Origin: Candidatus Omnitrophota bacterium
GTDB lineage: Bacteria > Ratteibacteria > UBA8468 > MWAK01
Assembly (NCBI GenBank): GCA_043797665.1
Contig: JAZDPL010000073.1
Coordinates: 62,009 to 126,008 of the forward strand
Reading direction: 5' to 3'
DNA: 64,000 nt
Positions 16,872 to 46,111 of this stretch are shown piece after piece. Position numbers and translations under genes: made by a program. Below the pieces are notes generated by a model. It made no database searches, was not told the origin of the DNA, and was given only the letters and a program-made list of their open reading frames with translations. Every line of letters begins with the position of its first letter. Positions within the stretch are counted from its first letter, which is position 1.

Positions 16872-16877
16872 TACAGC

Positions 16878-28816: not shown

Positions 28817-29730
28817 GGCACGTCTCTTCCCTTTACCCAGTGGCGCCAATATTTTACTGATTCCCGCAGGTTGTGTTCTAAATGACATTCTTCCGGATAA
28901 TAAGCCCGGTGACGAATCTCCAGAGCCAAAAGGATTTCGTGTTTGGCTTCCGAACGTCTTAGTGCCGCCAGGACTTTTTCGGGTTGAACGTCGCCCTTAT
29001 TATTATACTCCGGAACAAATGGCCAGTGGAAACTACCCTGGTTGTTGCTCTGCTGGATGTGGATGAGCGGAGAGACCTTGCCATAGCGTTCAATCCAGGC
29101 ATAGGGGTCTGCCTCCGGCGCCCCGGGATTCTCCTGGTTCCGGTGGCCTACGTCAAGGCAGAGCAGCATCGGTATGGCCGAACCTTTCATCCGGGAAAGG
29201 AGCCAGTCGTTTTCCTCAAAGGTCGCGCCGGTCTCCCGGGGGGTTGAGGTCGTTTCGTAAAGGAGGTACTTAAGACCCAGTTTCTTACCGTAATCAGCCA
29301 GCCGGTGGTAAGATTCTATCGCCCGCAAAAGTATTTCTTTCCGGCGTTTCCGGTCCCGGTTGGCGTTAACGGTGAGAATCGCAAAGCAGGTGCCGAACCC
29401 TTCCGCACCCAACCCTGCGGTGAGGTCCGCCATCTGCCGGTAGAAGGTTTCGTAAGCCTTTGCTGCCTCGTCGTCCGGATGACCCAAATAGTTCTGGTGA
29501 TGGTTGTGACCGCCGAAGGCGCACTTAATCCGAATATTATTCTTCCGGCAGGACGCCAGCGTTTTTTCGACTAATTTCTTTTGAATCTTTGCCGGCAGCA
29601 GGAAATCAATGACGTCGAAATTGAACTGGATTATGTGGATGCCGCAGGAGGCAACAACATCGGTCCAGGCTTCCGGCTCCATATAGCGGTTGCCGAAACA
29701 GTTGAGGTCAAATCCTAATTTGATATTCAT
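28813..29730 (-). CDS. Xylose-isomerase-like TIM-barrel sugar-phosphate epimerase (EryC-like)
   Basis: NRYMEP, LDVGH, DPYAW and IHIQQ...HWPF..EYN.KG resemble the D-erythrulose-1-phosphate 3-epimerase family. Confidence 0.7.
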   Translation of the reverse strand: MNIKLGFDLNCFGNRYMEPEAWTDVVASCGIHIIQFNFDVIDFLLPAKIQKKLVEKTLASCRKNNIRIKCAFGGHNHHQNYLGHPDDEAAKAYETFYRQMADLTAGLGAEGFGTCFAILTVNANRDRKRRKEILLRAIESYHRLADYGKKLGLKYLLYETTSTPRETGATFEENDWLLSRMKGSAIPMLLCLDVGHRNQENPGAPEADPYAWIERYGKVSPLIHIQQSNNQGSFHWPFVPEYNNKGDVQPEKVLAALRRSEAKHEILLALEIRHRAYYPEECHLEHNLRESVKYWRHWVKGRDVP

Positions 29731-30767
29731 GGGTTTATCACTACTTTTAAGGCACTGTGGCTTTCCACGGTTTCAAAAGCCTTTACGATTTCAATTAAGG
29801 GAAACCGGTGCGTAATCAATTTGCCGGCATCCACTTTTCCGGAAGCGATTAATTCTAAGGCTTCTTTATTCTGGCGTGCCAGAGAGGAAGAGGCACCGCT
29901 GACGAAGAACTCTTTGTAATGGATTTCGTTGGCGTTAATCGTTATCCGGTAGTCATCCTTGGGCAATCCGCCAAAGAGGTTTATCCTGCCCCGGGGCGCC
30001 AGGAGTTTAAAAGCCCCTTCCTGAGCCTGCCGGGAAGGCGCGCAGACAAAGATGACGTCCGCACCCAGGCCGTTGGTCTCTTTCATTACTATCTCCGCAA
30101 GGTCTTCCTCCTCAGAAGCGATGATTCGGTCCGGACTGAATTTTTTTGCTAACTCCAGCCTTGCCTGACTGCGCTGGGTTATCAGGATTTTCCGGGCTTT
30201 GTGCAATTGCGATAAGAGTATCTGGATACAGCCGGCCGGTCCGGCGCCGATAATCAGGACGACGTCGCCTTCCCTGACCGGGCAGTTCTCCCGGGCGTTC
30301 AAACTGCAGGCTAAAATCTCTGAAATGGAAGCTTCGTCAAAGGACAATCCATCAGGAATTTTATTGACAAAACCCAACCGGACCACATTTTCCGGCGGAA
30401 CGACGTATTCCGCAAAACCGCCGTCAGAAGCGTAGCCGATGGCAGGACAGGGTCTGATACAAACATTACTGTTGCCGGAAAGACAAAGCCGGCATTTCCC
30501 GCAGCCGTGTCCGGGCGCCACGCAGACCCTATCCCCTTCCTTAAAGCCTTTCAGTTTTTTGCCTACCGCCTCCACCACGCCGGCAATCTCGTGGCCAATG
30601 ACAATCGGGTACTTTGCCCGGGTATCTCCTTTCCGGAAGATGCGCACGTCCGAACCGCAGATGGCACAGGATTCAACCTTGACCAGAAGGGAATTTCCGC
30701 CGGGCGCTGGTTTTGGTTTTTCCACCAGTTCCATCTTACCCAAACTTACTACCTGTGCCACCAACAC
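29727..30767 (-). CDS. Zinc-dependent polyol/sugar dehydrogenase
   Basis: ICGSD, GHE, CGKCRLC...C, GAGPAG. Start placed at GTG 30767 after a GGAGG SD. Confidence 0.9.
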   Translation of the reverse strand: MLVAQVVSLGKMELVEKPKPAPGGNSLLVKVESCAICGSDVRIFRKGDTRAKYPIVIGHEIAGVVEAVGKKLKGFKEGDRVCVAPGHGCGKCRLCLSGNSNVCIRPCPAIGYASDGGFAEYVVPPENVVRLGFVNKIPDGLSFDEASISEILACSLNARENCPVREGDVVLIIGAGPAGCIQILLSQLHKARKILITQRSQARLELAKKFSPDRIIASEEEDLAEIVMKETNGLGADVIFVCAPSRQAQEGAFKLLAPRGRINLFGGLPKDDYRITINANEIHYKEFFVSGASSSLARQNKEALELIASGKVDAGKLITHRFPLIEIVKAFETVESHSALKVVINP

Positions 30768-30799
30768 TGGTACCTCCCAGATCCTTAAACATTTCACTC

Positions 30800-30849
30800 G
30801 TAGGGGTCGGATTTATCCGACCCGCGGGCTTGATGAATCAAGCCCCTAC
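30800..30849. repeat. REP-like doublet, family A
   Basis: GTAG-GGGTCGGA-TTTA-TCCGACCC-GC-GGGCTTGA-TGAA-TCAAGCCC-CTAC, intergenic within an operon. Confidence 0.85.
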
Positions 30850-30865
30850 AATTATCCAAACTCTA

Positions 30866-31858
30866 TTACGTAATTTTGATTAACACCTTACAATAAAACA
30901 TTTCCTTACGCCACATCTTTTCAATTATCTCCGGACCTTCTTCTATGGGAATCCGCTGAGTAATCATAGGCTGGAAATTAAAACTACCGGACTGAAGATG
31001 GCTATAAATCAGTTTTTCCTCTCCCCGGATATCATAACCCCAGCAACCTCTTAAGTCAACCTCTTTGCGCATAATCTTTTCAAAGATTGTCAGGGGCAGG
31101 ACCGTATCCTTGGTGTCCCGGCCGACCACCGTAATCGTCCCTTTTGGCGCAGATTTTCCCACCGCAGAAATCAAGGCTTTTCCGGAGCCCGCCGCCTCAA
31201 AGACCAGGTCGAAATTATCCAACCTTTGAAAAAGGTCTGAGGCCGGATTGATTACATTTTCAAAACCACAGTTTTGGGCAATCCGGAGCGATTCCTCTCT
31301 GATATCTGCCACCCAGATTTCACCCGCACCTAAAATCCTTGCCCACTGGCTGATGAGGAGTCCGATGGTGCCGGCTCCAAAGACCAGTACCCGCTCCTTC
31401 CCTTTCAGACCGGCACGCCTTGCCGTATAGAGCGCCACTAACAACGGTTCTAAAAACGCGCCTTCTTCCAGGGAAAAGTTTTCCGGCAGCGGGAAGAGGT
31501 TCTGGTTGGGAACAAGGCAGTATTCCGCAAAGCCGCCGTCCCGGCGGGAGCCCAGAAAATCGTATTTCTCGCAATGGAACGGACCCAGCCGGCAGCCGGG
31601 ACATTTTCCGCAGGGAATAATAGGCAGCACCGCCACTTTTCTTCCCCTCTCCGCAACATTTTCAACTGTGCCGGCAAACTCGTGGCCCGGGATAAGCGGG
31701 TGGCAATAGGCGCCGGTCTGCATAATCCTGGGCAGGTCAGAACCGCAGATACCGGAGGCAGCCACCTTAACCAGCGTCCATCCGTCTTTCGGGTCAGGCT
31801 GGGCCCGGTCCGGCTCAAACCTGAGGTCTCCCGGAGCATGCAAAACCAACGCCTTCAT
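30866..31858 (-). CDS. Galactitol-1-phosphate 5-dehydrogenase-like zinc dehydrogenase
   Basis: GICGSDLPR, GHEFAG, CGKC, YDFLGSRRDGGFAEY, GAGTIG. Confidence 0.85.
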   Translation of the reverse strand: MKALVLHAPGDLRFEPDRAQPDPKDGWTLVKVAASGICGSDLPRIMQTGAYCHPLIPGHEFAGTVENVAERGRKVAVLPIIPCGKCPGCRLGPFHCEKYDFLGSRRDGGFAEYCLVPNQNLFPLPENFSLEEGAFLEPLLVALYTARRAGLKGKERVLVFGAGTIGLLISQWARILGAGEIWVADIREESLRIAQNCGFENVINPASDLFQRLDNFDLVFEAAGSGKALISAVGKSAPKGTITVVGRDTKDTVLPLTIFEKIMRKEVDLRGCWGYDIRGEEKLIYSHLQSGSFNFQPMITQRIPIEEGPEIIEKMWRKEMFYCKVLIKIT

Positions 31859-34002
31859 CGGTAGTCAAGTGCTAACATCATAAAGGTGTTGAGTTTAGGT
31901 ACGCCAAACTCAACGTATCCATCCGTTAATTTATACTTTAAAATTTTTTCATCAGGCAGGACGACCAACCTAATCCCCCTTCTCCCCCTTTGCAAAAGGG
32001 GGATTGAGGGGGATTTCAATTTCAGACTGATTTTTATTCCCGCTACCGGAATATTGGGAAGTTCCTTCTGGAAGTTAAGAAGATTGATAAGGTAACGTCT
32101 TTTTTTTCTCTGGTGGAAGGTGGTAACCTCGACTGATTTTGGAGCCTCGGCTTCCAGGCTGTAGGAACTGACCAGAAGTTTCAGAAATCGGCTGAAGATA
32201 TCCCGGTGGATATCCAATTCACTGCTTTCTATTTCGCCGGCAGCGTAAAGCACTTTTCCTTTCCCGAATTTGTTGAATACTACCGCTGGTTGGTCTGTCT
32301 GGACACCTGGCGGGTTGCTGTGGATGGAGGCGAACCGGGTGGTATCAGCCGGGTTCGTGTAGGGAAGGACCAGATAACCTAAAACCTTTGCCCCGGGCAA
32401 GGCTTTTACCTTCATCTGGTACGAATCTAAACCCACCGGATACTTCTGCGAGAAGTCTGCAAACTTCTGCGAGAAATCAGCAAAAAGGTCTTGTGACCCT
32501 TCTGCAGGTGCGATATAGGTAAACCTCTCTTTTGTTTCACCTGCATACGAGACGCCAAAAAGGTCAGCCAGGAGGAAATCCTTCTGCCTTACTCCATCTT
32601 TGGTAAGGAGAGAGGTATATTTACTGGCGTAGAGGGTTCCGCCGGACCGGACGTATTCCCTGATGGCGGAGGCCTCCTCCTTATCCATCATCAGGACGTT
32701 AGGAAGAACAAGCATCTTGTACCGGGAAAGTTCGTTAATCCGTTTTTTGGTTATGATGCCAAAAGGAATATGGTTATTGATGAGCGTTTTACAGACGTTC
32801 ACCGCACCGTCTACGTGGGGCATCTTTGAAGAAAGTGGTGAATTCCCGGTTTGAACATTCTCTAACGACTTGCCGTTATCCGCAAAGTCGCATTTTGATT
32901 CGGTACTCAGGTAAATCGCAACGTCCTGAACCATCTCGCCGCCTAAATACAGTTCGTAGACCTTAGTTTCTTCAAAGACATCGTGCATCTTCTGATAGAC
33001 CGCCGGATTCAGGGTTCCGACCGGGTCGACGGCATCGATAAAGATGAAGGTACCTCCGTCAGCCAGGGCAGCGCAGGCTTTAGTTTGTAATAGTTCTTTT
33101 GACTTCATCCCGGTGTGGTAACCTAAGTTAACGCAGATGGAGGTTTCAAAACCGTAAGGCAGGTTTTCGCTCAAATTATAAAACAATTTTCGGGCGAATG
33201 AACCCTGCAGGGCATCACCGTAAAAGTCACCCTGAAGGAAATCACACTGCCGGGTCATGGGATGAGTCACTCCCAGCACCCAGGACTGATTATAGGTGGA
33301 CGCCTGATGTTCCACCGTAACTTCAGGTTTGAGTTTCTTGACGGTACTGGTCATTAGGGTAGCGAAGTCAACCAGCCACTCCTCCCGTTTACGCTGGAAA
33401 CTTACCCAGACCGGGTCTTCCCAGTTAATCACCCTGGGCAGACTGCCACCAACCTCCCGGGCAAACCTTTTCTGGCAGTAAGGGCAGTAACATATCGCGG
33501 GCCAGAAGGTCATATCAAACCGTATCCCTTCAAAATCAAAATCTTGACAGATTTCTTTTGCGATACCGGACGCATAGTTCCGGTAAGGACTGTTAGGACA
33601 GCAGAGTCCGTATCTGCTTTTCTCGGCGCGGCTGGTTCCGTCCACATCTACGACGTGCCAGTCGGGGTGGGTCCGGAAAGCTGATGTATCAAAGATAACG
33701 CTGTAATAGACCACCACGTAAATACCTTTTCGGTGGCACTCTTCAATCACCTCCGCCAGAATATTCCTTCCTTTCAGGCCCCGGTGCATCTGGCCGAGCC
33801 TGGTGGGGAAGTAACAGAGTCCGGCGTGGGAGTGGGCATGGATCACCGCAGACTGAACCTGTGCCAAAGCCATCATTTCCGCGTACTTTTTCGGGTCAAA
33901 CTCAGACATAAACCTTGCATCCCAGTCAGCAATGTGCATATCAACCACATTTCTGCGATACGCCTTCTGATACCACTTCTTCTTCATTCCCCCTCGATTC
34001 AT
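31855..34002 (-). CDS. GH151/GHL6-like (putative alpha-L-fucosidase) with trimerisation-type domain
   Basis: VVDMHI, HSHAGLCYFPT..G.MH, CCPNSPY, GIRFDM, CYCPYC. No signal peptide. Confidence 0.72.
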   Translation of the reverse strand: MNRGGMKKKWYQKAYRRNVVDMHIADWDARFMSEFDPKKYAEMMALAQVQSAVIHAHSHAGLCYFPTRLGQMHRGLKGRNILAEVIEECHRKGIYVVVYYSVIFDTSAFRTHPDWHVVDVDGTSRAEKSRYGLCCPNSPYRNYASGIAKEICQDFDFEGIRFDMTFWPAICYCPYCQKRFAREVGGSLPRVINWEDPVWVSFQRKREEWLVDFATLMTSTVKKLKPEVTVEHQASTYNQSWVLGVTHPMTRQCDFLQGDFYGDALQGSFARKLFYNLSENLPYGFETSICVNLGYHTGMKSKELLQTKACAALADGGTFIFIDAVDPVGTLNPAVYQKMHDVFEETKVYELYLGGEMVQDVAIYLSTESKCDFADNGKSLENVQTGNSPLSSKMPHVDGAVNVCKTLINNHIPFGIITKKRINELSRYKMLVLPNVLMMDKEEASAIREYVRSGGTLYASKYTSLLTKDGVRQKDFLLADLFGVSYAGETKERFTYIAPAEGSQDLFADFSQKFADFSQKYPVGLDSYQMKVKALPGAKVLGYLVLPYTNPADTTRFASIHSNPPGVQTDQPAVVFNKFGKGKVLYAAGEIESSELDIHRDIFSRFLKLLVSSYSLEAEAPKSVEVTTFHQRKKRRYLINLLNFQKELPNIPVAGIKISLKLKSPSIPLLQRGRRGIRLVVLPDEKILKYKLTDGYVEFGVPKLNTFMMLALDYR
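31972..32015. repeat. Palindromic element (family C) translated in frame within the GH
   Basis: AATCCCCCT-TC-TCCCCCTTT-GCA-AAAGGGGGA-TTG-AGGGGGATT, read as KSPSIPLLQRGRRGI. Confidence 0.7.
32443..32484. repeat. In-frame 21-bp tandem duplication (FADFSQK x2)
   Basis: CTTCTGCGAGAAGTCTGCAAA / CTTCTGCGAGAAATCAGCAAA, with two synonymous differences. Confidence 0.85.
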
Positions 34003-34013
34003 TATCTCCTAAC

Positions 34014-35279
34014 TTATTTCAGTTCGCCAAGTACTTTCTTGGTTCCGTTGACAATAAGCTTGTATCCGGCACAGTCCAATACCGCTCCTTTTTCTACCGT
34101 AAGGTCATTTTCCACAATACAGTCGGCTGACAGGGTTGTCTTTCCGGAGACCACCAGGTTATAGAATTTCGTCGGCTGGACAACCTCACCTGAAGGCAGG
34201 GTATTCTCTCCAGTCAGGATAAAGGTTGACTTTCCGCAGGAGATGCAGGAATTTTCGTCGTCGATATATATTGTGCCGCTGCATTTTACGGTACTTTCTC
34301 TGCAGTCTAAGGCACTCTGCCGCACCTTACTTCCCTTATTACCCAGGCGCAGGTCCTTGAATGTCAGAGGCAAGCCGCCGGTATCCAGAATTGTCCAGGC
34401 GTTATCCTCCTGGCAGTCGATACTTAACTGGGCGCATTCGATTGGACCGGACGTAGTATAGGTACAGCAGGCGGTAAAGAAAAGGTTGGGATACCTGCCT
34501 CCAGGAACCACTGCGGTTGAGTTCTTGCCCGGTGCGCTCATACAGACATTTACACTGTCAGCCCAGGTGGCACCGGAATAACGGTAGCAGTCTTTGTTGG
34601 GATTGTAGAAAACGATTGTACCGGTGCCGCCGATTGTACCGGTTTTTACCTGTAAAGAGAGCGCCCGCATCGTACCGGATATATCCAGCCTCCGGTCTTC
34701 TCCGCCTCCGATGACCACCTTGGAAAAACTGAACCCCTCAGAAGGGAATTCCTGGGTGTAAGTTTTCGTCCCTTTACCGCAGAATGTCACGGTCTCACCG
34801 TGCCAGCCGGTAAATCGGCTCTTCTGTTTTGCGGTGTAGTTACCGTAGAAATAAAATTGGCTCTTAATGCCGGTGTTTACTACCGCAGAATTGGTTATGG
34901 TAAAATCGACACCCACCGTTAGATTACATTCCGCTGTATCCCAGATGGCTGCACCGGAATGGCTGAAGTCTCCGCTAACAGTGAGATTCGTACTTTGGGT
35001 AATTTTGCCGGTGTGACCTTCCGTGATTGTAATTGAACCGATATTGTCGGCTGTCTTATCCACAGAACAGACACCCTGTCCCTTATCATCGAAGAAGATA
35101 TTGTCTCCGGATTCCGGCAGTGTATCGCAGGGGTTGCCTCCGGAGGTCTCACTCCAGTTTTTTCCGTCGCTCCAGTTGCCGGAACCGGAGGCTGTCCAGT
35201 ATCTATCCGCCGCAAAAACTTTTGAAGTAAGCGGGATTAACATTGCTGTGATTATCATAAGAAGTTTTTCTTTTCGCAT
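34014..35279 (-). CDS. Secreted beta-helix-like protein (autotransporter-passenger-like N-cap)
   Basis: Signal peptide ending VFA; RYW...GNWSDGKNWS...GDNIFFD; G/T/V-rich beta-strand repeats. Apparent paralogue of 43471-44700. Confidence 0.65.
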   Translation of the reverse strand: MRKEKLLMIITAMLIPLTSKVFAADRYWTASGSGNWSDGKNWSETSGGNPCDTLPESGDNIFFDDKGQGVCSVDKTADNIGSITITEGHTGKITQSTNLTVSGDFSHSGAAIWDTAECNLTVGVDFTITNSAVVNTGIKSQFYFYGNYTAKQKSRFTGWHGETVTFCGKGTKTYTQEFPSEGFSFSKVVIGGGEDRRLDISGTMRALSLQVKTGTIGGTGTIVFYNPNKDCYRYSGATWADSVNVCMSAPGKNSTAVVPGGRYPNLFFTACCTYTTSGPIECAQLSIDCQEDNAWTILDTGGLPLTFKDLRLGNKGSKVRQSALDCRESTVKCSGTIYIDDENSCISCGKSTFILTGENTLPSGEVVQPTKFYNLVVSGKTTLSADCIVENDLTVEKGAVLDCAGYKLIVNGTKKVLGELK

Positions 35280-35290
35280 ACGATTACCTC

Positions 35291-36043
35291 CTAAAAAAGA
35301 TAAATTAACCTAAATTCAACATCACTGCCTTTTGCCACAAAGTTTTGCTGCGACATCCATTCAACATGTCCGTCGCAGAAGGCAACATTCACCCCGTTAT
35401 TATGCCGAAAAGCAATCGTTCCTGTATCAGCGGGGTCCACCATTTCGTAATTCCAATATGACTCTTGAGATGCATCGGCTAAGAGGCAGGCATTGCTGGG
35501 CTGTCTGACCTGGCTGTCTTTTACTTCCTTCGACCTGTCGACTCCACAGTAAGCTCCGCTGCGGGTAAGAAATGCGTTGCAACCGTATGACATTAAATAA
35601 CCGGCTCCGGGAACCGTTGTCCGGTCGTACGGATTCCTGTCGGACGGGCAACGCAATACCCCACTCCCGACCCCGATATAGTTTATAAGTTTACCTTCCA
35701 ACCAGTACACCGGGGCATAAGAAGTTCCATTCCAAAGGGTTGGATAGTAACCATCGTAGTCTGCACGGTATAACTCAAACGCCAGGCCCAACTGCTTCAG
35801 GTTGCTGATACACTGGGCCTTCCGCGCCTGCTCCCTTGCCTGGCTCAACGCCGGTAAAAGCATCGCCGCCAGGATGGCGATGATGGCGATTACAACCAAA
35901 AGTTCTATCAGGGTGAAGGCATGTAGGGAGGAAGGGGGAGGGGTGGTAGAATAAGATGACGACCGCAGATTTGTCTGTACCCGACGTACCGACAAAGAAA
36001 ACTTGCGCTCCATTAAAGAAAGGAGTTTAGTTATGAGCACCAT
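35291..36043 (-). CDS. Prepilin-type N-terminal cleavage/methylation protein (DUF1559, H-X9-DG) with an extended leader
   Basis: [66 protein letters not shown] before 36043. Confidence 0.92.
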
Positions 36044-36133
36044 AAATACCTCCGGTTTCCTGGCTACTACACACAGGGATAAGTTTAATTCTAACGTGGG
36101 TACATACCTTCAAGATTTCGGTAATTGGTCCCA

Positions 36134-38215
36134 TTACGGTTTTCGGCTGGAAATCTCTATGATCGTATGTATCTGCACCGGGGGCGCCTCAATCACCGCC
36201 AGACGGTTTCTTAGCTTTAGTTTGAGGTCCTGTTTCTTCGGATAGACCACACCGGCGCAATGGAATTTCCAGGTGTCTTGGTCAAAGATGATCTTCACTC
36301 CGGTTATGGGGATAACCTCACCGCGCAAGAGTTCAATGGAGTTATTCAGAAGATGGACAAGTACTTTGTTTTTCTTCTGGACAAAGACCGCCTCCACCAC
36401 GGACGGACCTTCTTTCCTGAGTCCGATGTCTATCTTAAGGTAATCGATGACCGCCTTGAGGAAAACCGCCGGCCACCTGACGTTTTGGTGCAGAATGCGG
36501 CCCAGCGGCGCCACGGTATAGATGACCTTGCCTTTGCCATAATCAGCGATGGTGACCGCCGGCCAGGAGGCCTCGTTGCCGGGCGGCAGGGGCCCCCAAC
36601 CGATATAGGCATCCCGGCTCTCAACCCCGACCGGCTTCGCCACCCAGGCGATTGGCTCAGCGTTGGTGCATTCTACCTGGACAAAGTTCTTCCCGAGCAG
36701 GTAATCGGTCTTGCGGAAGTTCTTGAAGAGGGGGTGGTCCCGGAAGCGAAGGTATCCACCGATGGTATTGACCTCGTAATCCCGGCAGATACCCCGGTAT
36801 CTTATGCCCAGTAAGTCTGCCAGGAGGAAATCTTGTCTCAGGGAGGCGGTCTCATCCCTCAAGCCGGTTTCTGCGGTCACCAGAAGGTTCCCGCCTTCCC
36901 TGACATAGTCTGTGATGGCAGCGACCTTCTTTTTTTCCAGGCAGGCCATTTCCGAGATGACCAACAGCTTGAATTTTTTGAAATTGGCTTCATTCATGCG
37001 CCAGTCAGGGATAAATTCGCAAGGGATGCTTAAGCCCCGAAAGACATCGATGATCTTTCCGATGCCGTAACCGTACTTGTTCTCTTCCATTATATCGGTC
37101 GCACTTTCCAGAAGCCAGGTATTTTCGTCGTGGCAGACCCCTACCGCCTTGACCGGTTCGGAATCTCTGACAAATTTCTGTTTCCGTGCGGTTTCCCGGT
37201 TCACCCCTTTCAGGAATTGGTACTTGGAATCGGCAAAAGTCCCGTCACCGGAGCGGCCCTGGGTAAAGAAGAAGAAGGTACGGTTGCCGTGGGCAAGTAC
37301 CCGGGCTGCCTGAAGGCGGACGGTAGTCTGGGGCCAGGCGTCCATTATATCGTTCCCGCCCCAGATGCCGCACTGGGCATGGGCATAATTGTCCCGGCAA
37401 CCCCTTAAAACCACACAGTTCCATGCCCGTTCACCGCCTTCGCTGTAAACCCAGTCAAGCTGTTTCAGGACTTCCTGGCCTTCAAAAAGAAGACCGGTCG
37501 GACCTCCGTTAACTGTAATGGGAATGTCCGAAGGATAGGCAACTGCCCTGATTTCTCTCAGAAATTCCGCCCATTCTTCGCACCAGTACTTCATAACCAG
37601 GAAGCGCTCTTCCGGTTTTTCACTGTAGGGGTTAAGCCCTCTGGACCGGTATTTGGACTGGCAACCCTGGCAAAAACAGACTGACTTGTACCAGGTGTAA
37701 ATATGAAAGATGTCAAGCATGATGCTATCAAACTTATACTTTCCGGTAAATTCAGCTATCTGGTCCAGGCAGTACTTCCGGAAGCCGGTATTGATACAGG
37801 CCATATCCCAGCGCCAGCCAGAATTATCCTTCAAGTTCCAGTACCAGACCAGGTCTTTACCTTCACTGTTCTTAAACCGCCAGTCAGGGTGAGTTCGGGC
37901 GGCAAGGTTGTCAAATCCGATGCAGTAATAAGCTACTGCTTCCACGTCGTTCTTGCGGCATTCATCGACCAGTTCCTTTACCATATCCCGCTTGCCCAGG
38001 GCCGGGTGTTTTACACCGAATTTTGTATCGTAATAGGAATAGCCCCAGTGGCATTTGGTTGTCAGATGCAAAGAATCAATACCTGCGTCCAGGCATTTCT
38101 TCAGTTGCTCCCGGGCGGAGAACTTCTCAAAAGTAATGTAGGGTGCATCCGGAAAATGCTGGTCAATCATCAGTGCCCGAAATATACTCTTGTATTTCTC
38201 GTTCATTCTGTTCAT
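36134..38215 (-). CDS. GH151/GHL6-like (putative alpha-L-fucosidase) with trimerisation-type domain
   Basis: IDQHFPD, KCHWGYSYYDT..G.KHP, ACINT, IMLD, CFCQGC. Confidence 0.72.
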   Translation of the reverse strand: MNRMNEKYKSIFRALMIDQHFPDAPYITFEKFSAREQLKKCLDAGIDSLHLTTKCHWGYSYYDTKFGVKHPALGKRDMVKELVDECRKNDVEAVAYYCIGFDNLAARTHPDWRFKNSEGKDLVWYWNLKDNSGWRWDMACINTGFRKYCLDQIAEFTGKYKFDSIMLDIFHIYTWYKSVCFCQGCQSKYRSRGLNPYSEKPEERFLVMKYWCEEWAEFLREIRAVAYPSDIPITVNGGPTGLLFEGQEVLKQLDWVYSEGGERAWNCVVLRGCRDNYAHAQCGIWGGNDIMDAWPQTTVRLQAARVLAHGNRTFFFFTQGRSGDGTFADSKYQFLKGVNRETARKQKFVRDSEPVKAVGVCHDENTWLLESATDIMEENKYGYGIGKIIDVFRGLSIPCEFIPDWRMNEANFKKFKLLVISEMACLEKKKVAAITDYVREGGNLLVTAETGLRDETASLRQDFLLADLLGIRYRGICRDYEVNTIGGYLRFRDHPLFKNFRKTDYLLGKNFVQVECTNAEPIAWVAKPVGVESRDAYIGWGPLPPGNEASWPAVTIADYGKGKVIYTVAPLGRILHQNVRWPAVFLKAVIDYLKIDIGLRKEGPSVVEAVFVQKKNKVLVHLLNNSIELLRGEVIPITGVKIIFDQDTWKFHCAGVVYPKKQDLKLKLRNRLAVIEAPPVQIHTIIEISSRKP

Positions 38216-38225
38216 TTGGAATCCT

Positions 38226-40265
38226 TCATTCTTCTAACACGACCATCCGGTAACCATCGATGCGTGGCACCGTAAAGCAGGTTTTGCCTCCGTGTGATTC
38301 AAAGGTAAATTCTGTTCCATCACTCGGCGAGAAAACGCGCTGAATCCGCTTTCCGGTTTTCACCCTGAGGGTTATGTCCACCAGCGGAAATACATCTTCA
38401 ACTATGTCCAGATTAGCGGCACGACGCTGGGGTACATAATTTAAAATATTAATGACCAGGTATCGGCCATTTCTCCGGAGGGTAACCTCGGCCGTGGTAG
38501 GGAGGTTGGAGTCCACCAGACGTTCACCCAGCAGTAAATTAAGAGCGTACCGTACTATTTCACGATAAGGCCAATAAGCATATTTATGATAGAGATCGAA
38601 CAGACGGGGCGCGATATAGATGATATTACGGTTATTGTAAATCATTTCAGGCCGGTCACTGCGCCGGGCGACGGGAGTCTGAGCATGCGAACAAAAATGG
38701 TCCCAGCTGCGGTTGAAATAAGGTTCCGAGGCACGCAGCAGTATCGGGTAACTGTTATCCAGTGTTTGCACCATGACTGCCGGTTTCTCAATTTTATAGA
38801 CTACATAGTCAAAGTCCGCCAGCACCTCCAAAAATTTCCCGCAGGGATAAATGTAATAAGGCTCATAGGGATTTCTTCCCAGGGCCTTAAGTTGGATTCC
38901 TGGAAGGGCGAAGCTTCCCTCCGCATTTAGACCGGAATTGCCGGTGGCAAGAATTTTGCCGCCACCGGCCAGGTAACTTTCCAATTTGCCAATAAGCGCA
39001 TCGGTAAGAGTTATATTATCAGGAAGAATGATCAGGGGATAGCGGATAAAATCGCTCGCATCGTCCAGAAAAGAAAACTGGATATGCATCTGCATTAAGA
39101 TGCGAAGTGCTCCATATATGGGCGAATAAATATCATCCCAGAAATTATGAGGCTTGCCATCCTCGTAAGGAATAACTACGCCTGCCTCATCTACCGGTTC
39201 TGAGGGGTAAGCGTATTCCTCGATCGTTTTTACTTTGGCATAGGTCCGGCCAATAAGTTCATAAGCGGCTTTTTCCATGGTACCGTCAGGATTGAGCTGG
39301 TCACCCACGCCACAGGTGACACCGAAACTCACCATACGCAAGCATTCGTAGTCCAGGGCAGCTTGAGGTTTGAGGCCCCCGAAATCCCCCCAGTTTAGGT
39401 GGAAGCGGCAGGTTTGGGAGACCATTGGCAATCCTGTATTCTGAAAATACCGGACCAATAGAGCAAAGTGGTCGTAGCCAAAACCGGTGCCCGTGGGGAG
39501 AGATTCCATTCCGATATGCCCCATCCGTTCAAGCTCGGGTATGGGGCCTCGCTCGCGTTTGCCGTCAAGACGCAGTCGTCCGTTAAACCAGAGGATAGCC
39601 TTCGGGTGCCTCACCCGTATTAGATCGCTGAACTCGGATATAAAGTCCCGGGCGGTTAAGCGCGAATATTCCAGTACATCCGCTTCAGATTTAGGATCCA
39701 GACCGCGTTCTTTCATCCCGGCAAGGCAGTACCGGCAACAACAGCCAAATGGAGCCCAGAGAATGTCCAATATCATCTCTTTCACGACGTAGCGTTCACA
39801 TAGTTCTACTACCTGTCGGCGGAAGTACTCGCGGTAAGGGCTGTTCCAGCAAACGAACCGCCAGCCCGGCTGAAATAATAAGCCTTCTTCGGATTTTGTT
39901 GCCCACTTCAGAAGTCGGCCGTCCTTATCCTGCATGCACCACTCCGGATGCTGTTCTGCTGTATACTCATCAAAAGCAATGCTGGTATAAAGCGCGTAGT
40001 CAAGGCCCGCTTCGCTCAAAGCCTTGATCTGTTCCCCGAGAAGATCAATGCTTTTCAATCCGGGATGTACGGGACCAACGGCAGAGGGGTAATAACAGTA
40101 ACCGTGATGACAGCGGGTGAAAATATTGACCGATTGGATATGGGCATTCTTTAACCTGCGGACAAATTCTCTCCCATCAAATTTCCCTCCAACATCAGGG
40201 ATGGCACCGGAAGTATGAAAATCCAGCTGAAGCGTTCGTCTGGCAAAATGAAGTTTTCTTTCCAT
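38226..40265 (-). CDS. GH151-like alpha-L-fucosidase
   Basis: LDFHTS, RCHHGYCYYPS..G.VHP, VCWNSPY, ESLPTG, FHLNWGDFGGLK, GDQL. Confidence 0.8.
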   Translation of the reverse strand: MERKLHFARRTLQLDFHTSGAIPDVGGKFDGREFVRRLKNAHIQSVNIFTRCHHGYCYYPSAVGPVHPGLKSIDLLGEQIKALSEAGLDYALYTSIAFDEYTAEQHPEWCMQDKDGRLLKWATKSEEGLLFQPGWRFVCWNSPYREYFRRQVVELCERYVVKEMILDILWAPFGCCCRYCLAGMKERGLDPKSEADVLEYSRLTARDFISEFSDLIRVRHPKAILWFNGRLRLDGKRERGPIPELERMGHIGMESLPTGTGFGYDHFALLVRYFQNTGLPMVSQTCRFHLNWGDFGGLKPQAALDYECLRMVSFGVTCGVGDQLNPDGTMEKAAYELIGRTYAKVKTIEEYAYPSEPVDEAGVVIPYEDGKPHNFWDDIYSPIYGALRILMQMHIQFSFLDDASDFIRYPLIILPDNITLTDALIGKLESYLAGGGKILATGNSGLNAEGSFALPGIQLKALGRNPYEPYYIYPCGKFLEVLADFDYVVYKIEKPAVMVQTLDNSYPILLRASEPYFNRSWDHFCSHAQTPVARRSDRPEMIYNNRNIIYIAPRLFDLYHKYAYWPYREIVRYALNLLLGERLVDSNLPTTAEVTLRRNGRYLVINILNYVPQRRAANLDIVEDVFPLVDITLRVKTGKRIQRVFSPSDGTEFTFESHGGKTCFTVPRIDGYRMVVLEE

Positions 40266-40278
40266 TGGTTCGTATTTT

Positions 40279-43200
40279 TTAATCCATTGGTCCGGCTATT
40301 TTATCCAGCGGCAGTGACCGCTGTGCCAGTACCTTATTATCCTTCAGCAGTTCAATCTTGATTTCATATCTGCCCGCGGGCAAACCGCCGGTATTTAGGG
40401 TGTACCCGGCCGGTTCCGCCTTGGCCGGCAGAGCTGCCTCCCGCAGGACCTCGTTCTTCGGACCGCGCAGACTCATCTTCAGAATGCTTCCCTTCAACAT
40501 CGGCGGTGTGGCAAAGACGCTCATCTCTAAATAAGACCGGTTCTCGTTCAGGTACTGCTTGTTGTTTAATGCCTGGACCTGGAGGACTTCCTTAAATATT
40601 ACCGCATACGCAATTTCGTCCACCGCCTTGCCGGTAAGATTATCTGCCACCGAAGCCGTAAAGGTGTAGTTCCCGGGTGCCAGCAGAGTAAAGGGCAGTT
40701 CTACCTTCTTCTCCTGGCCGCCATTCAAGGTTACCGGCAGAGGAGGAATGGTTACGGAATCTTTATCCGCAATCAGGGTAGCCTGCACGGTAAGGGCTGT
40801 TTTCCCTTTTTTCGGATTGGCCAGGGTCAGGATAATGCTATTTTCTCCGAGCAGAGCTTTCTCAATTGCGGCTCTCTTCAGGAATGACCGTTCGAAATTG
40901 ATGATATTGAACTTATCCGGATTGTAGCCGAAGACTCCGTAAGACCAGCTGCTCATCTCGCAGTCCTGCAACGCCTCGTCCCGGCTCTGTCTCTCCCGGG
41001 CAAAGTTGATGCCCCACCGTGGCCCGTATTTCTCCTTTAACTCTTTTATTGGGATTGCCATCTCCAGCATCCAGTAGTCCTGACCCCGGGAACCTTTCGC
41101 CTTTACTTTCAGATCAGACGGGCTGGCGTACATGTTCCAGAAACCGTTGGCGTTCACCATCAGGTGAACCTTATTCTTCCAGGTGAAGTCAGGGTCAATA
41201 AAGATTTCGGCGCAGTCGTCCCGCCAGGTTTCCGGGTCTTTATTCTTGTAAACCTTCAGTTTTAACCCGGCCATATCCTTTTCTTCGCACCGGTACCCTA
41301 CATACATATTCTGGTTATCACCGAGCAGATAGACCTCTGTCTGCTGTGCTGCGGCTTTGCTGGCAAAATTATCTTCGGCCCCGGTCCGTACTTGGAAATC
41401 TCCTATCTTTAAAGCAGTCTTCCACACTTTTTCATCCAGCCGGCCGTCAATCTCCGGTGCCTGGCTGACCACCGGCAGGTTAATAATCTGCCTGGTAATG
41501 ACCGGAGAATACGGTTCGGTCTTCGGCAGCGTTACTCTGTTCAAGACCAACGGGCTGCGTTCAATCAGCCGGGCTTTTTTTTTAGCGGTATCGCTCTCGA
41601 CCGGCAGATTCTTCGCCCGCATAATCATCTGCGCTACCTTCCAGCGTGTCCGGTCGTAATCGTTTAAATCCCATCCGTTTTTCCATTTCATAGGACCTTC
41701 ATTCTGAAACTTCCTGGTTTTGAAATCGACTTTGGTGCTCTTCCAGCCGAATATCCTGCCGTCTCCGTTGGATAAGCCGCCCATCTCTTCCGACATCTTA
41801 ATTGAGGTTCTGATTGCGTCCATTTCCTGTTCTATTTCCGAAACGATCTGTTTGTCTCCGTCGCTGGTACTCTTCTTGAGTTCTGCCAGGGCATTTTCCA
41901 GGGTAACCAGGTAGCGGTAATCATCGATGCCTTCCCGGAAACCTTCCAGGCCGGTCGAAGGACCGCCTACCTCCCCGTCCTGCGGAGGGTACCGGAAATT
42001 CCAGCCAAAGGATTTAAAGTCGTCGTAAGGGTCACCGTGGTTCTGGTAAGCCCAGGTACAGGCACCATCAGTACCTCTTGCCCAGGAAAGAAACCCCAGG
42101 GTAAACCGTTGGGCTTCAGGGAAATAGCCACTTTCATCGTAGTTATAACAAATTACTTTTTTCCCTTGGGTGTGAATAGTAGCAGTCTTATCTTTGAAAG
42201 GCAGATAACCGTTGGGGTTTAAGAGGTCAATCAGGGGATAGACATCCGGCTGGTTCATAAATATGTCCCAGCCTCCATCGATCGTGGTCTTTACACCAGA
42301 CTCCTTTAAGAGTTTTAATAGTACCGTACATTTCTTTATATCTTCCTGCGGTTTCTCTCCCCAGCCCACCTCGTCCATCGGTCCCCAGTAAATTTCAGAC
42401 CAGCCCTTCTGTTTGCAATAGTCAGATACCGCCTTGACCGCTGCCTTGTAGGCATTATTAAACCCTTCGGAACCAAACTCGCCGTACTGTAAAGCAAACT
42501 TTTCGACGTCATGGGGCCACATTCCGAATATCACGGGTGCCGGATATTGGTTCTTCTTGTACTCTTCCATACATTGCTCGAACCAGCTGGTACCGTCAAA
42601 ATGGAGCGTTACCTTGTTGCCATCGTACTCCACATTCCGAAACCGGCTGTCATTCCTGTCCTGCGTGAGACAACTTACCCACCCCACCCAGACGGTAGTG
42701 GCACCGTATTCCCGCATGTCTTTGAAGTGGGCACTTCTGAAGGAGTGCTGGTAATCGTCCTGGTAGCAGAAACCGAACATCTTGTCCGGAGGTACCGGTG
42801 CCAGTTTGAAAGGGAGCACCCGGAATTTCAAGGATAACTCGGAAGCCGGAGCGTTTGCCGGCGTAAAGCTGACCTTACCGGTATAGATACCTGCCGGGGC
42901 ATCGTCAGGCACCTTGATTGTCAGCCAGAACCGAAAGCTGGTGTTAGCCGGAATATCCACGGCCGGGCGCTTTTCAATGATACTGGGTAGGTTATAGTAT
43001 GCCTTGCCATTCTCAGCCGCCCGGCGATAAAATGACCTTACCGCACCCACCTCGATATTATTTACCGGGATTACCTTGCCGTTCTCATTCTTTAAATCCG
43101 TAACCTTGACCGCCACTCCCTTAAGTTCTTTTAAGGTGCGGACGCAGAAGGTCACCGGGTCATATTCACCGGGCGTGGCAAAACCGTTCAGTTCCGAAAC

Positions 43201-43449
43201 GACTTCATCTTCTCTGGGTATCACCGCTTCATAAACTATCTCTACGGTGGGTCGCTTAAAGATGATATAACCGTTCTTCTCCTGTTCTGGAGTTGTTTGG
43301 AACATCGGGGTCTTGTCTACTAACTCTATTTCGCTGAAGTCCTTCGGGATATCCTCTTTCCTGGGCACACCAGCAGATACCACGCCGGCCTGGATAAGCA
43401 AGAAGAGACAGGCCGTAATACCTTTCAGCCACAGCCTTTTCGGTTCCAT
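40279..43449 (-). CDS. Secreted GH123/DUF4091-like TIM-barrel protein with CBM9-like domain
   Basis: Signal peptide; FWLTIKVPDDAPAGIYTG, DE, EGFREGIDDYRYL; APEIDGRLDE..W..DDCAEIFID..WGINFAR. Confidence 0.7.
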   Translation of the reverse strand: MEPKRLWLKGITACLFLLIQAGVVSAGVPRKEDIPKDFSEIELVDKTPMFQTTPEQEKNGYIIFKRPTVEIVYEAVIPREDEVVSELNGFATPGEYDPVTFCVRTLKELKGVAVKVTDLKNENGKVIPVNNIEVGAVRSFYRRAAENGKAYYNLPSIIEKRPAVDIPANTSFRFWLTIKVPDDAPAGIYTGKVSFTPANAPASELSLKFRVLPFKLAPVPPDKMFGFCYQDDYQHSFRSAHFKDMREYGATTVWVGWVSCLTQDRNDSRFRNVEYDGNKVTLHFDGTSWFEQCMEEYKKNQYPAPVIFGMWPHDVEKFALQYGEFGSEGFNNAYKAAVKAVSDYCKQKGWSEIYWGPMDEVGWGEKPQEDIKKCTVLLKLLKESGVKTTIDGGWDIFMNQPDVYPLIDLLNPNGYLPFKDKTATIHTQGKKVICYNYDESGYFPEAQRFTLGFLSWARGTDGACTWAYQNHGDPYDDFKSFGWNFRYPPQDGEVGGPSTGLEGFREGIDDYRYLVTLENALAELKKSTSDGDKQIVSEIEQEMDAIRTSIKMSEEMGGLSNGDGRIFGWKSTKVDFKTRKFQNEGPMKWKNGWDLNDYDRTRWKVAQMIMRAKNLPVESDTAKKKARLIERSPLVLNRVTLPKTEPYSPVITRQIINLPVVSQAPEIDGRLDEKVWKTALKIGDFQVRTGAEDNFASKAAAQQTEVYLLGDNQNMYVGYRCEEKDMAGLKLKVYKNKDPETWRDDCAEIFIDPDFTWKNKVHLMVNANGFWNMYASPSDLKVKAKGSRGQDYWMLEMAIPIKELKEKYGPRWGINFARERQSRDEALQDCEMSSWSYGVFGYNPDKFNIINFERSFLKRAAIEKALLGENSIILTLANPKKGKTALTVQATLIADKDSVTIPPLPVTLNGGQEKKVELPFTLLAPGNYTFTASVADNLTGKAVDEIAYAVIFKEVLQVQALNNKQYLNENRSYLEMSVFATPPMLKGSILKMSLRGPKNEVLREAALPAKAEPAGYTLNTGGLPAGRYEIKIELLKDNKVLAQRSLPLDKIAGPMD

Positions 43450-43470
43450 TCGTTCCCCCCTTTGAAATTT

Positions 43471-44700
43471 CTATTCTGGTTTGGTTATCTTACCGGTACA
43501 GACGATATTACCGCCGACATTCATCTCGCCTTTGACCACCAGGTCGTTGTTCCCCATATCAAGGGTGGCACCATACGCGATATCGAGCGTTCCGGTCACC
43601 GTCAACGGTCCCTGGCAGGCCAGTGTCCCGTCGGTGACGGTAACATTTTCCGCGGTTATTGATTTGCCCTGGATGGTTCCCGTGGTGCTCTTGGTCTCCT
43701 TGTTTTGAGTCTTTTCATAGATTAATTCACCGATGGTGAGGATCCCGCCGTTGATGATGGTATTCCCGCCCCGCAAGGTAACCATCTTTGTTTTGAAACT
43801 GCGGTTCTGGCAATCCAATACGGCGCCGGCGTGTCCGAGGTCGTCTCCTATTGTTACCAGGGACCCGGAAGTCAAATCACTGCTCAATTTCAACACTCCT
43901 TCCCAACTCAGATAGATCGAAGTCCACGGCTCATCCGGAACTACTACCGCAAACTGAGTCGAGCCCCACCGCCTCAGGTGCGAATTCTCGTTTAGGGTGA
44001 GTACGCCCTTGGGACCCCGGTTCCATTTGACCAGCCCCAGGCAGATGCTCGTGTCGCGCATGTCAAGTTCGCCGCCCTCCTTGCCGCCTATGGTTACGTC
44101 CTTACCTATGGTAAACCAGTTGCTGGTTGTTAATTTACAGCCTCTGGTGTCGGAAATCACCAGACCGCGGGGGCTGTTGCCATGTATTGAGGTATGAGTG
44201 TTTACGATGTGATTTGCCGAACCGCTTATGGTCAATCCGTCAAATGAACCGCTCAGGATTCTGGATTTACCATCAACGATGTTGTGGACTATCTCTCCGT
44301 CACCGTATATCCCCTTCATCCATTGTCCGCTCTGGGCGGCCACGATGTTTCCCTGTATCTCCACCCGGTTGCCGCCATTATTCAGACCCTTCTCGGGAGC
44401 GATATTACAGTCGCCGGTAATCGTCATCTTGCCTGCCTGGCTTACCGCTTTGGCAAATCCTCCTGAAACCGTGAAGTTCTTCACCCGGGCGTCGGCCGAT
44501 ACCAGGCAGTCGGCCCTGGCCTGGTTGTCAAATACCACATTATCATCCGGACCGGGAGCTTTACCCTCAGACCAGTTACCGGCTTCTTCCCAGGCAGTCT
44601 CCTTTCCAGGTGCTCCGCCCTGCCAGTGGAGGTCGGCTGTCCGGGCCTGACCGCAAAATAATAAAAGTATGAAAAGAGATGCACCATAAATCTTTGCCAT
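43471..44700 (-). CDS. Secreted beta-helix-like protein (autotransporter-passenger-like N-cap)
   Basis: Signal peptide; LHWQGG...AWEEAGNWS...DNVVFD; C-terminal GATLDMG..DLVVKG resembles 34014-35279. Confidence 0.65.
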   Translation of the reverse strand: MAKIYGASLFILLLFCGQARTADLHWQGGAPGKETAWEEAGNWSEGKAPGPDDNVVFDNQARADCLVSADARVKNFTVSGGFAKAVSQAGKMTITGDCNIAPEKGLNNGGNRVEIQGNIVAAQSGQWMKGIYGDGEIVHNIVDGKSRILSGSFDGLTISGSANHIVNTHTSIHGNSPRGLVISDTRGCKLTTSNWFTIGKDVTIGGKEGGELDMRDTSICLGLVKWNRGPKGVLTLNENSHLRRWGSTQFAVVVPDEPWTSIYLSWEGVLKLSSDLTSGSLVTIGDDLGHAGAVLDCQNRSFKTKMVTLRGGNTIINGGILTIGELIYEKTQNKETKSTTGTIQGKSITAENVTVTDGTLACQGPLTVTGTLDIAYGATLDMGNNDLVVKGEMNVGGNIVCTGKITKPE

Positions 44701-44827: not shown

Positions 44828-46111
44828 TTATCCAGTAAAGGTTAAGAATTCAGGGATAGCCAGACCGGTTGCTTCCGGATTGGATCTGGAAGCAAAATGC
44901 TGGCAGAAACTTAACGGTTCGGTGCTTTCGCAGATAACCTCAGACCTTTTAGCCGCCTCTATGCTTACAAAGACCTCGTCCGCGCCGGTTTCTTCCCTGG
45001 TTTCGTACATCGCCGGGGACTCAACTTCTAAGTATTCTTTCTTTGGTACACCAATCTTTCCGTGTCCCCGCAAGACAATGATACCGAAAGCGGATTTTTC
45101 TTCCAGTATTAACTTTTTACCCGGATAGACTACGGTTCTCTTGGCACTATAATAGTCGGGAGCCTTAGGCTCACTGCTTCGGCTGGTTCGGTAGACGACA
45201 AAATCCTGTCTGCCGGAAGAGGAGGAGAATACTTTTACGGGTGGCCGGAAGTACTCCTGGCGGAAGTTGTGCCGGTTGCCGGAATTAGGACACTTAATCA
45301 TATTGAGAATATACTGAAAGACCGTGTCTTTGCCATCCTTCTTCAGGTCTACCGGCAGGTCCTTATCTATCAGGTCCGGCGGCATAACCATATCGTTGAC
45401 CCTTGATTCCGGAACGCAACTTACGTCTGAGGCGGACTGGAGTTCATACGTTACCAGGGAACCCGGTGCATGTAAGGTGCAGGGAGGCATAAACCAGCCG
45501 GTGCCGGGGATGAGGTTGATAGCGTTGGAAAGGTCAGCGAGGCGGTTGTCACCCTGAAAATAGCGTTGCAGATAGTTGAGTATCTGTCGGTCGGAGTAGG
45601 AGGGGTCAGACCCAAAGTAGGTGCTGGGAAATGCGTTCCGGTTCAGGTTCAATTCCAGCGGGAAATAGTAGGACTCGGGTTTTCCTTTCAGACCTTTTCG
45701 CACGTGCTGGTCACAGGGATGGAGGTGGTTGGGAATCCGGTGCCAGTTATCAAAGAACTTGGTCAGAACGTCCCACCGCCTGCCTTTACCCAAAACAAGG
45801 TTACCATAGATGTCCAGGATATCTTTCAATTGTACTTTCTTCCCGTCAATGATGACGTAACTTAAACCATGGTCCGGCGGGCAGGATTTGTTGTAGACGC
45901 CGTTGTCTGCGTAGGTAGCCGAAGCCAGCCAGCGCTCATTGACGACCACGTCCTGGGAGAGATAGTCATCCAGGAGTTTAATCCTTCTGCCTGGTATGAT
46001 GATGCCGGGACGGCCCACCCAGGCTGGTGTCAGCCGGAATATTCCGCCGGTCCTTTCGGCCTCTTTTTCTACCAGCTTCTTTATCTCCGTTTCTTTATCA
46101 ACCCGTTTCAC
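44828..46111 (-). CDS. Cupin-fold phosphomannose-isomerase-like protein
   Basis: HLHP, KPESYYF, GTGW, LHAPGSL.TYE.Q..SDV metal-binding cupin motifs. Confidence 0.65.
   Translation of the reverse strand: MKRVDKETEIKKLVEKEAERTGGIFRLTPAWVGRPGIIIPGRRIKLLDDYLSQDVVVNERWLASATYADNGVYNKSCPPDHGLSYVIIDGKKVQLKDILDIYGNLVLGKGRRWDVLTKFFDNWHRIPNHLHPCDQHVRKGLKGKPESYYFPLELNLNRNAFPSTYFGSDPSYSDRQILNYLQRYFQGDNRLADLSNAINLIPGTGWFMPPCTLHAPGSLVTYELQSASDVSCVPESRVNDMVMPPDLIDKDLPVDLKKDGKDTVFQYILNMIKCPNSGNRHNFRQEYFRPPVKVFSSSSGRQDFVVYRTSRSSEPKAPDYYSAKRTVVYPGKKLILEEKSAFGIIVLRGHGKIGVPKKEYLEVESPAMYETREETGADEVFVSIEAAKRSEVICESTEPLSFCQHFASRSNPEATGLAIPEFLTFTG

Follow-up and report, generated by a model that had tools for sequence, protein, structure and literature searches.

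The 64-kb stretch of contig JAZDPL010000073.1 from Candidatus Ratteibacteria (64,000 nucleotides, hereafter the window) carries two gene runs for glycan utilisation, operons 1 and 2, and in each of them a gene for a pilin-like protein stands among the enzymes. The question raised by operon 2 is what such a subunit does in an operon of sugar breakdown. The answer favoured here, which is given a probability of about one half, is that each of these proteins is a locus-specific subunit with which a shared type IV filament captures glycan, in place of the SusD protein or the binding protein of an ATP-binding cassette (ABC) transporter. The two genes concerned are as follows:

35291..36043, minus strand: DUF1559 / H-X9-DG pilin-like protein of operon 2, 250 amino acids (aa), with a 42-residue leader and a 208-aa mature form
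10333..10995, minus strand: pilin of operon 1, with Gly at position -1

Recurrence within the window had been taken in the preliminary description as the mark of a real functional module, and the module does recur throughout the genome (G000; 2.69 Mb, 86% complete), where 61 pilin paralogues were found (58 by motif and 3 by profile, a count that omits one contig-end fragment and weaker matches). Among named sources, the LepA of this genome comes closest to that of Candidatus Ratteibacteria (L160, 76% identity), the other 79 loci listed being at 51% or below. When the neighbours of these DUF1559 genes were tabulated, as that description had advised, 49 of the 61 pilins proved to have a gene with a Pfam glycoside hydrolase (GH), carbohydrate-binding module (CBM) or LamG domain within two genes. 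Domains of carbohydrate-active enzymes (CAZymes), CBM or LamG occur in 73 of 216 pilin neighbours versus 5 of 120 control genes (odds ratio 11.7, Fisher p 2.5e-11, genes within blocks not being independent). For this comparison 138 of the 216 neighbours were scanned, one per BLAST cluster, labels being carried across clusters and window labels added; regulators, URO-D proteins, proteins below 100 aa and window genes were set aside from the scan, and the control genes came from 20 random blocks, each more than six genes away from any pilin. The next-downstream gene is a GH/CBM/LamG gene at 33 of 59 pilins and the next-upstream one a GntR-LacI regulator at 18 of 57. No other neighbour is as strongly enriched as these regulators, with 27 of 35 within three genes of a pilin (p 1e-16), and the usual order in this genome is regulator, pilin and then secreted enzyme or CBM.

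The association is also found in the relatives of the same class. PF07596 (DUF1559) was detected in all 41 class genomes searched, with 3 to at least 49 matches each, and pilin counts track CBM9 counts across them (rho 0.65, or 0.48 after genome size, kin not being independent). Among 65 relative loci, drawn from the top PF07596 and GH123-like matches and thus non-random, the next-downstream gene carries a CAZyme/CBM domain in 28 of 62 cases (3 of the 62 being themselves pilins), or in 24 of 55 with GH123-selected loci excluded, and a GntR-LacI-type regulator lies within three genes of 37 of 93 pilins. Tandem arrays of three or four pilins also occur in relatives (L123, L125, L133, L140, L154, L157).

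The expected correspondence between head clades and neighbouring genes was borne out in part: 9 of 14 cross-genome pairs with a normalised head score above 0.5 share a neighbour, compared with 15 of 9035 pairs at scores up to 0.1, but only three of the seven clades that span families do so. This tendency of similar heads to have neighbours in common shows that a pilin and its enzymes often move as a unit; it is predicted by co-inheritance alone and does not imply substrate recognition. Recently duplicated pilins (head score 0.5-0.9) were found within the genome at C33:9557-24546, C74, C46/C81 and C76/C79, with neighbours duplicated in three pairs. The closest relatives of the operon 2 GH123-like gene (in G024 and G019) adjoin pilins that best match a different paralogue of this genome.

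Two further features of these neighbourhoods deserve mention. A URO-D/methyltransferase-like family has 54 members in one BLAST cluster of this 2.7-Mb genome, many of them among sugar loci (in the window, 16842-18005 and 55993-57150), and at a guess handles O-methyl sugars. Moreover, a pilin of the H-X9-DG type adjoins an O-antigen-ligase (Wzy_C) and TPR gene at G000:C1:5734-8536 and at L111 in a relative, the former also being near a sugar transferase; glycosylation of the pilin is possible at loci of this type.

Constant helix and variable head

The proposal of a constant N-terminal domain was confirmed, with a median amino-acid identity of 91% over residues 1-33 of the paralogues and 53% at four-fold third positions. 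Because these positions are only 53% identical, selection acts on the protein sequence, which indicates purifying selection on the N-terminus. The same divergence makes it unlikely that the constancy is chiefly due to gene conversion or recent duplication, and the identity still exceeds the random level of 25-35%, so that some shared ancestry or codon bias persists. Phe1 and Glu5 are invariant in 66 of 66 aligned members, as are C36, Y50 and C90, and Y80, P91, Y111, H172, N177, D182 and H184 are conserved in at least 90%. The heads, whose variability likewise held across the paralogues, nevertheless share a scaffold, as this conservation shows. Trp and Tyr together make up 11.1% of the head residues, where the proteome has 4.9% and other pilins have 8.0%; by composition and gene context a glycan is a candidate ligand of the head.

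The two pilins of the window were described as almost identical at the N-terminus and unrelated in between. The first part stands: 28 identical mature residues, [10 protein letters not shown] and DGH are common to both, and DNA identity over codons 1-33 is 73%. The second holds for the pair, whose normalised head score is 0.09 against a background median of 0.07, and fails for the family as a whole, the scaffold residues being conserved.

As regards the operon 2 pilin, its 42-residue leader is preceded by a GGAGG ribosome site and ends in Ala at position -1. The protein passes all three DUF1559/H-X9-DG family cut-offs: the prepilin N-terminal motif is matched by TIGR02532 (27.1 bits, cut-off 16.3) and PF07963 (27.8, cut-off 21.2), PF07596 scores 47.9 bits (cut-off 23.3) over residues 68-101 only, and the C-terminal H-X9-DG motif TIGR04294 reaches 35.4 bits (cut-off 19). 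In the operon 1 pilin the H-X9-DG spacing was recognised by eye, with no TIGR04294 score at E<=0.01. Gly at -1, present in 14 of 14 conventional pilins compared, is reported as critical for prepilin processing, and Glu5 as dispensable for processing and required for homopolymer assembly (PMC4471445, accessible part). The operon 2 protein is accordingly filed as pilin-like and not as a canonical pilin, because it has Ala in place of that glycine. Many prepilin leaders of the genome (C37, C39, C43, C63, C68, C86) end in recurring short peptides common to unrelated pilins, which suggests that small repeat elements were inserted before the cleavage site.

The AlphaFold2 model of the operon 2 pilin, built from 66 homologues (predicted local distance difference test, pLDDT, 82), consists of a helix of about 50 residues (3-53) and a small beta-sheet. 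In a structural search of 48,161 chains the top 16 matches were all pilins, the best being PilA4 (Z 5.8, root-mean-square deviation, rmsd, 3.7, 119 residues aligned) and ComP (Z 5.1, rmsd 4.0, 99 aligned), and a pilin-like fold is thus predicted. No periplasmic-binding-protein fold stood among the structural matches listed, which does not exclude that fold. The homologue search with the head returned only itself among 41 candidates.

Operon 2 and its control region

The gene order proposed for operon 2 was upheld, all seven open reading frames lying on the minus strand at spacings of 10-90 bp. The operon is longer than previously described, with a DeoR gene, a gene for a 427-aa protein and a sigma70 promoter also upstream, and probably spans 46935 to 28253, thus comprising DeoR, the 427-aa gene, the seven genes noted before (including the pilin, listed above) and four catabolic enzymes. 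Its features, in order of transcription, are:

46976..47004, minus strand: sigma70-type promoter TTGACA-17-TATAAT, 12/12 match
46937..46975, minus strand: two 19-bp direct repeats, 18/19 identical, period 20, read from the sequence
46162..46935, minus strand: DeoR-family sugar-phosphate-sensing regulator, 257 aa (DeoRC E 2e-45, HTH_DeoR)
44828..46111, minus strand: 427-aa protein with no detected family, no signal peptide by heuristic
43471..44700, minus strand: predicted secreted beta-solenoid, 409 aa, autotransporter-passenger-like
40279..43449, minus strand: predicted secreted GH123-like enzyme with CBM9-like domain, 1056 aa, substrate unproven
38226..40265, minus strand: GH151-like alpha-L-fucosidase homologue, 679 aa, no signal peptide by heuristic
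36134..38215, minus strand: distant GH151-like protein (GHL6 and GH42 trimerisation domain), 693 aa
34014..35279, minus strand: predicted secreted beta-helix, 421 aa, resembling an autotransporter-passenger beta-solenoid
31855..34002, minus strand: third GH151-like protein, 715 aa, no signal peptide by heuristic
28253..31858, minus strand: catabolic tail of four genes, which are the next three lines
30866-31858 and 29727-30797, minus strand: two Zn-dependent polyol/sugar dehydrogenases
28813-29730, minus strand: xylose-isomerase-like TIM barrel
28253-28888, minus strand: SIS/HxlB-like isomerase

The site at 47004-46976 is the sole 12/12 match among the 23 sigma70 sites found in 27.9-47.7 kb and is the likely start point of the entire operon. 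The direct repeats sit between its -10 box and the DeoR start, a position that makes them a candidate DeoR operator. Clustered CAZymes with a local regulator, a feature of polysaccharide utilisation loci (PULs), are therefore found here, and the co-regulation of these genes is presumed from the layout. The 427-aa protein gave no match in Pfam, NCBIfam or PDB searches; its histidine motifs, by eye, are what we would take to be cupin-like.

The gene labels given earlier were mostly sustained, except that the GH123-like and two of the three GH151-like assignments are only distant. In the 1056-aa protein the GH123 N-terminal domain (46.8 bits, cut-off 27) and CBM9_1 (30.7, cut-off 23.4) are recognised and the GH123 catalytic domain PF13320 is borderline (23.0 bits versus a cut-off of 23.1), with a PDB match in the N-terminal part (E 3e-6). 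The 679-aa protein is a clear full-length homologue of the fucosidase 6TVK (E 5e-120, residues 10-678), which we take to be a GH151 member; the 715-aa protein matches it weakly (E 2e-25, residues 13-714) and the 693-aa protein over residues 30-200 only (E 3e-13), the genome scan giving no relative of the latter. Signal peptides, called by a crude heuristic throughout, were assigned among the seven noted genes to the 409-, 1056- and 421-aa proteins only.

The two predicted secreted beta-solenoid proteins have an N-terminal cap in common (E 4e-8). The 409-aa protein resembles autotransporter/PATR models (TM score 0.66-0.70). The best structural match of the 421-aa model is the Vag8 passenger (Z 16.2, rmsd 4.8, 327 aligned) at a pLDDT of 58 overall, with low confidence in the N-terminal half; its cap motif is common to giant repeat proteins, and one full-length homologue was found (P0003, 55%); the protein may be an adhesin or a lyase. 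The idea that beta-helix genes belong to the repeated architecture had to be given up, as the three found genome-wide all lie inside the window. Operon 1 comprises a GntR-LacI regulator, the pilin, a beta-helix protein, a CBM9 enzyme, a GH42-like and a GH2 enzyme and a DUF6785 membrane protein.

Toxin-antitoxin-like genes stand on both flanks of operon 2: an AbiEii-type nucleotidyltransferase and DUF6922 gene (27287-28233) just beyond its end and a PIN/HTH pair (47970-48694) upstream.

Filament machinery, import and the explanations weighed

Shared machinery encoded elsewhere had been postulated, and it is present: the genome encodes four secretins, seven near-full-length PilB/GspE ATPases, four GspF/PilC proteins and one A24 prepilin peptidase, in at least four clusters, together with four shorter ATPases of PilT size. 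The lack of such machinery or of a prepilin peptidase, or of any correlation between pilin clades and neighbouring CAZymes, had been named beforehand as grounds for dropping the idea; machinery and peptidase were found, and head clades and neighbours partly correlate. One locus (G000:C21:14974-26570) contains PilM/N, PilO, two secretins, GspC-PDZ, GspD, GspE and GspF, and may be the shared assembly machine, for which it is a candidate. Two secretins within 6 kb are found in 34 of the 41 class genomes. The motif scan gave no prepilin gene at this locus, which lies near mreB and rodA-like genes.

As regards import, the Pfam scan detected no membrane transporter among the operon 2 genes, in particular no SusC/SusD-type match and no ABC gene. 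The genome as assembled contains no TonB receptor match (PF00593), and its census of importers amounts to seven ABC permease matches, one SBP_bac_1, one SSF, three MFS_1 and three DUF6785; across the 41 class genomes, ABC permeases number 2-12 and TonB receptors 0-3. An outer membrane is indicated, because BamA and secretins are encoded. Locus-specific transporters were considered and rejected, since polytopic membrane proteins show no enrichment around pilins (11 of 305, versus 60 of 1544 at a distance). The three DUF6785/DUF6784 polytopic membrane proteins (4279-6207 in the window, at the end of operon 1, C72:24047 and C63:18391) are candidate shared oligosaccharide carriers.

According to the favoured reading, a sugar signal would lift DeoR repression and the pilin would be produced along with the operon enzymes. 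The constant helix would admit any paralogue to one common platform, possibly the class-conserved C21 locus, and the Trp/Tyr-rich head would bind glycan, holding it at the secretin or drawing it through. The secreted GH123-like enzyme would trim the captured glycan, a shared inner-membrane carrier (DUF6785 being one candidate) would import the fragments, and the GH151-like enzymes and dehydrogenases would complete their breakdown in the cytoplasm. A bolder form of this reading, in which one retractile type IV filament and its secretin, reprogrammed by some 60 interchangeable heads, pull polysaccharide into the periplasm, is speculative and rather unlikely. If true, it would be a third bacterial mode of glycan uptake beside SusC/D and ABC binding proteins, and would explain both the DUF1559 expansions and glycan uptake free of SusCD across the bacteria of the Planctomycetes-Verrucomicrobia-Chlamydiae (PVC) group and Ratteibacteria.

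Expression data bearing on this come from Verruconatronum alginivorum, in which an alginate-induced cluster contains a PulG-like pseudopilin with 67 homologues in the genome (PMC13274419). On alginate its 251-aa locus pilin makes up 0.513% of the proteome, compared with 0 on sucrose (Table S3 of that paper), the highest value in the cluster, the lyases being at about 0.1%; a 129-aa pilin beside PilT is co-induced (0.006 to 0.222%), one DUF1559 protein appears on sucrose only (0.033%) and another 251-aa pilin is abundant under all three conditions (PMC13274419, accessible part).

Several observations weigh against capture by a shared filament. Assembly into a filament is presumed from the gene content, and the operon 2 pilin is one of 34 paralogues out of 61 without the canonical Gly at -1 (27 Gly, 18 Ala, 15 Ser and 1 Asn). 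The structural Z-scores are modest, all below 8, and Foldseek gave no match at E<=0.001. For 12 of the 61 pilins no Pfam CAZyme lies within two genes; head similarity and neighbours correlate weakly within the genome (rho 0.09, Mantel p 0.014), four of the seven clades that span families have no neighbour in common, and a head in L102, 80% identical to one in L106, shares no neighbour with it. Some pilin arrays of relatives adjoin housekeeping genes or genes without a CAZyme domain. With the genome 86% complete, some importers may lie in the unrecovered part, and small sugars could enter through general porins without any pilus. Finally, each Verruconatronum proteome is a single replicate, that on mannose being sparse, and comes from an organism that has TonB systems, and the induced pilin is unconfirmed as an H-X9-DG protein in the accessible part of that paper (PMC13274419).

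The alternative that survives best, although unlikely, is that the pilin is a cargo adaptor, i.e. a pseudopilin of a type II secretion system (T2SS) whose ligand is a protein: it would recognise the enzymes or beta-helix proteins that its own operon exports and would power their secretion or their display at the surface. A predicted secreted protein is present in 53 of the 61 pilin gene runs, as an adaptor would predict and to the detriment of the favoured reading, and the start of the next-downstream gene looks like a signal peptide in 31 of 59 cases; the eight runs without a predicted secreted gene speak the other way, with the qualification that the heuristic is crude and some runs are cut by contig ends. 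The class-conserved locus has T2SS-type GspC-PDZ, GspD, GspE and GspF and no PilT-sized ATPase, aromatic-rich loops suit protein binding equally well, and T2SS export of alginases was suggested by the Verruconatronum authors (PMC13274419, accessible part). However, in Verruconatronum the pilin exceeds its lyases in abundance about fivefold, and an adaptor leaves the importer gap unexplained. Furthermore, in one relative (G004, locus L079, C17) an SBP_bac_1 sugar-binding protein and ABC permeases precede two GH123-like genes, which looks, as a single case, like slot exchange, a sugar-binding protein occupying the usual position of the pilin.

Next comes an unassembled binder, an improbable explanation in which the helix serves as an inner-membrane anchor or for dimerisation and a periplasmic head binds or senses glycan and passes fragments to a shared carrier. 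The absence of Gly at -1 from 34 of the 61 paralogues and the long, irregular leaders suit it, as do the original family description as solute-binding (PMC2754498, accessible part) and the fact that even the archaeal bindosome has never been seen as a filament, according to the accessible part of PMC4471445. A plain anchor, by contrast, would need neither 91% identity over 33 residues nor invariant F1 and E5 under purifying selection, and secretins occur in all 41 genomes searched. The view of the pilins as passengers, diversified surface variants co-induced on glycan islands for non-specific attachment or phage evasion, with no substrate role, is very improbable: head and neighbours can indeed be uncoupled, co-inheritance alone explains the tracking of neighbours and 12 pilins lack a nearby Pfam CAZyme, but the pilin shares its strand with 57 of the 59 genes next downstream and with 56 of the 57 next upstream, the regulator-pilin-enzyme order recurs across families and pilin number tracks CBM9 number once genome size is allowed for.

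DUF1559 proteins make up one of the largest families of paralogues in Planctomycetes, without an assigned function in the literature found, and the polysaccharide uptake of PVC-type glycan degraders free of SusC/D is a second question that becomes testable beside it. The present, uncultured lineage offers a clean natural test, with an outer membrane, hardly any recognised importers of sugars, and dozens of CAZyme loci that each have one pilin-like gene. Should the heads bind glycans, they would form a large and so far unused set of small glycan-binding domains whose likely substrates are labelled by the neighbouring enzymes, and the pilin gene could serve as a marker by which utilisation loci are predicted in phyla without cultured members.

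Comparison with known systems

The PULs of Bacteroidota combine, for each substrate, a regulator and several CAZymes with a surface protein that varies and is not catalytic, in dozens of copies. The same elements are repeated from locus to locus here: a regulator, a variable non-catalytic protein and a CAZyme set. What differs is the SusC-like TonB receptor with SusD by which a PUL is defined; operon 2 has neither, no TonB receptor was found in the genome, and any channel would be shared and not locus-specific. The bindosome of Sulfolobus (Bas system) also consists of sugar-handling proteins with class III signal peptides, which a type IV filament machine brings to the cell surface (PMC3047682, accessible part). 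Its subunits are binding proteins of ABC transporters, whereas the pilin-type head here has about 150 residues and operon 2 lacks the cognate ABC transporter that marks a bindosome. Operon 2 would thus work in the manner of a PUL or a bindosome but belongs to neither.

Expansions of DUF1559 (PF07596, SBP_bac_10) have been published before, with 74 proteins in Rhodopirellula baltica (PMC2754498), 68 in Planctopirus limnophila (PMC10632474) and further cases (PMC4807772, PMC5352709), and the size of the present one matches those counts. The family was first described as solute-binding (PMC2754498), and the accessible parts of the DUF1559 papers cited give no other role. They call it restricted to PVC bacteria or Planctomycetes, whereas here it is found in Candidatus Ratteibacteria, linked to CAZyme operons and with a pilin-like model. 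In a search of the literature lying mostly outside subscription journals no paper was found that describes a regulator-pilin-CAZyme module as such, and the word "pilin" is absent from the main text of a 2026 preprint on CAZyme clusters.

The Verruconatronum cluster is similar in that a pilin of about 250 aa in a glycan cluster is induced together with the enzymes (PMC13274419, accessible part). It differs in possessing its own symporter, with TonB systems in the genome, where operon 2 has no transporter and no TonB receptor was found; its authors interpret the pilin as part of T2SS export, and a general pilin-CAZyme module is unreported in the accessible part of that paper. The DNA receptor ComP, a minor pilin of Neisseria, and the pilus locus MUL2 of Akkermansia (PMC13174399) likewise tie pilin subunits to polymer capture; in the MUL2 paper MUL2A is described as like an archaeal type IV pilin, DUF1559 being unmentioned in the main text. 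Both are single loci, in contrast to the roughly 60 separately regulated subunits found here. By analogy, the bindosome (PMC3047682, PMC4471445, both in their accessible parts) and Akkermansia MUL2 (PMC13174399) may be regarded as functional precedents for pilin-like subunits that would capture glycans.

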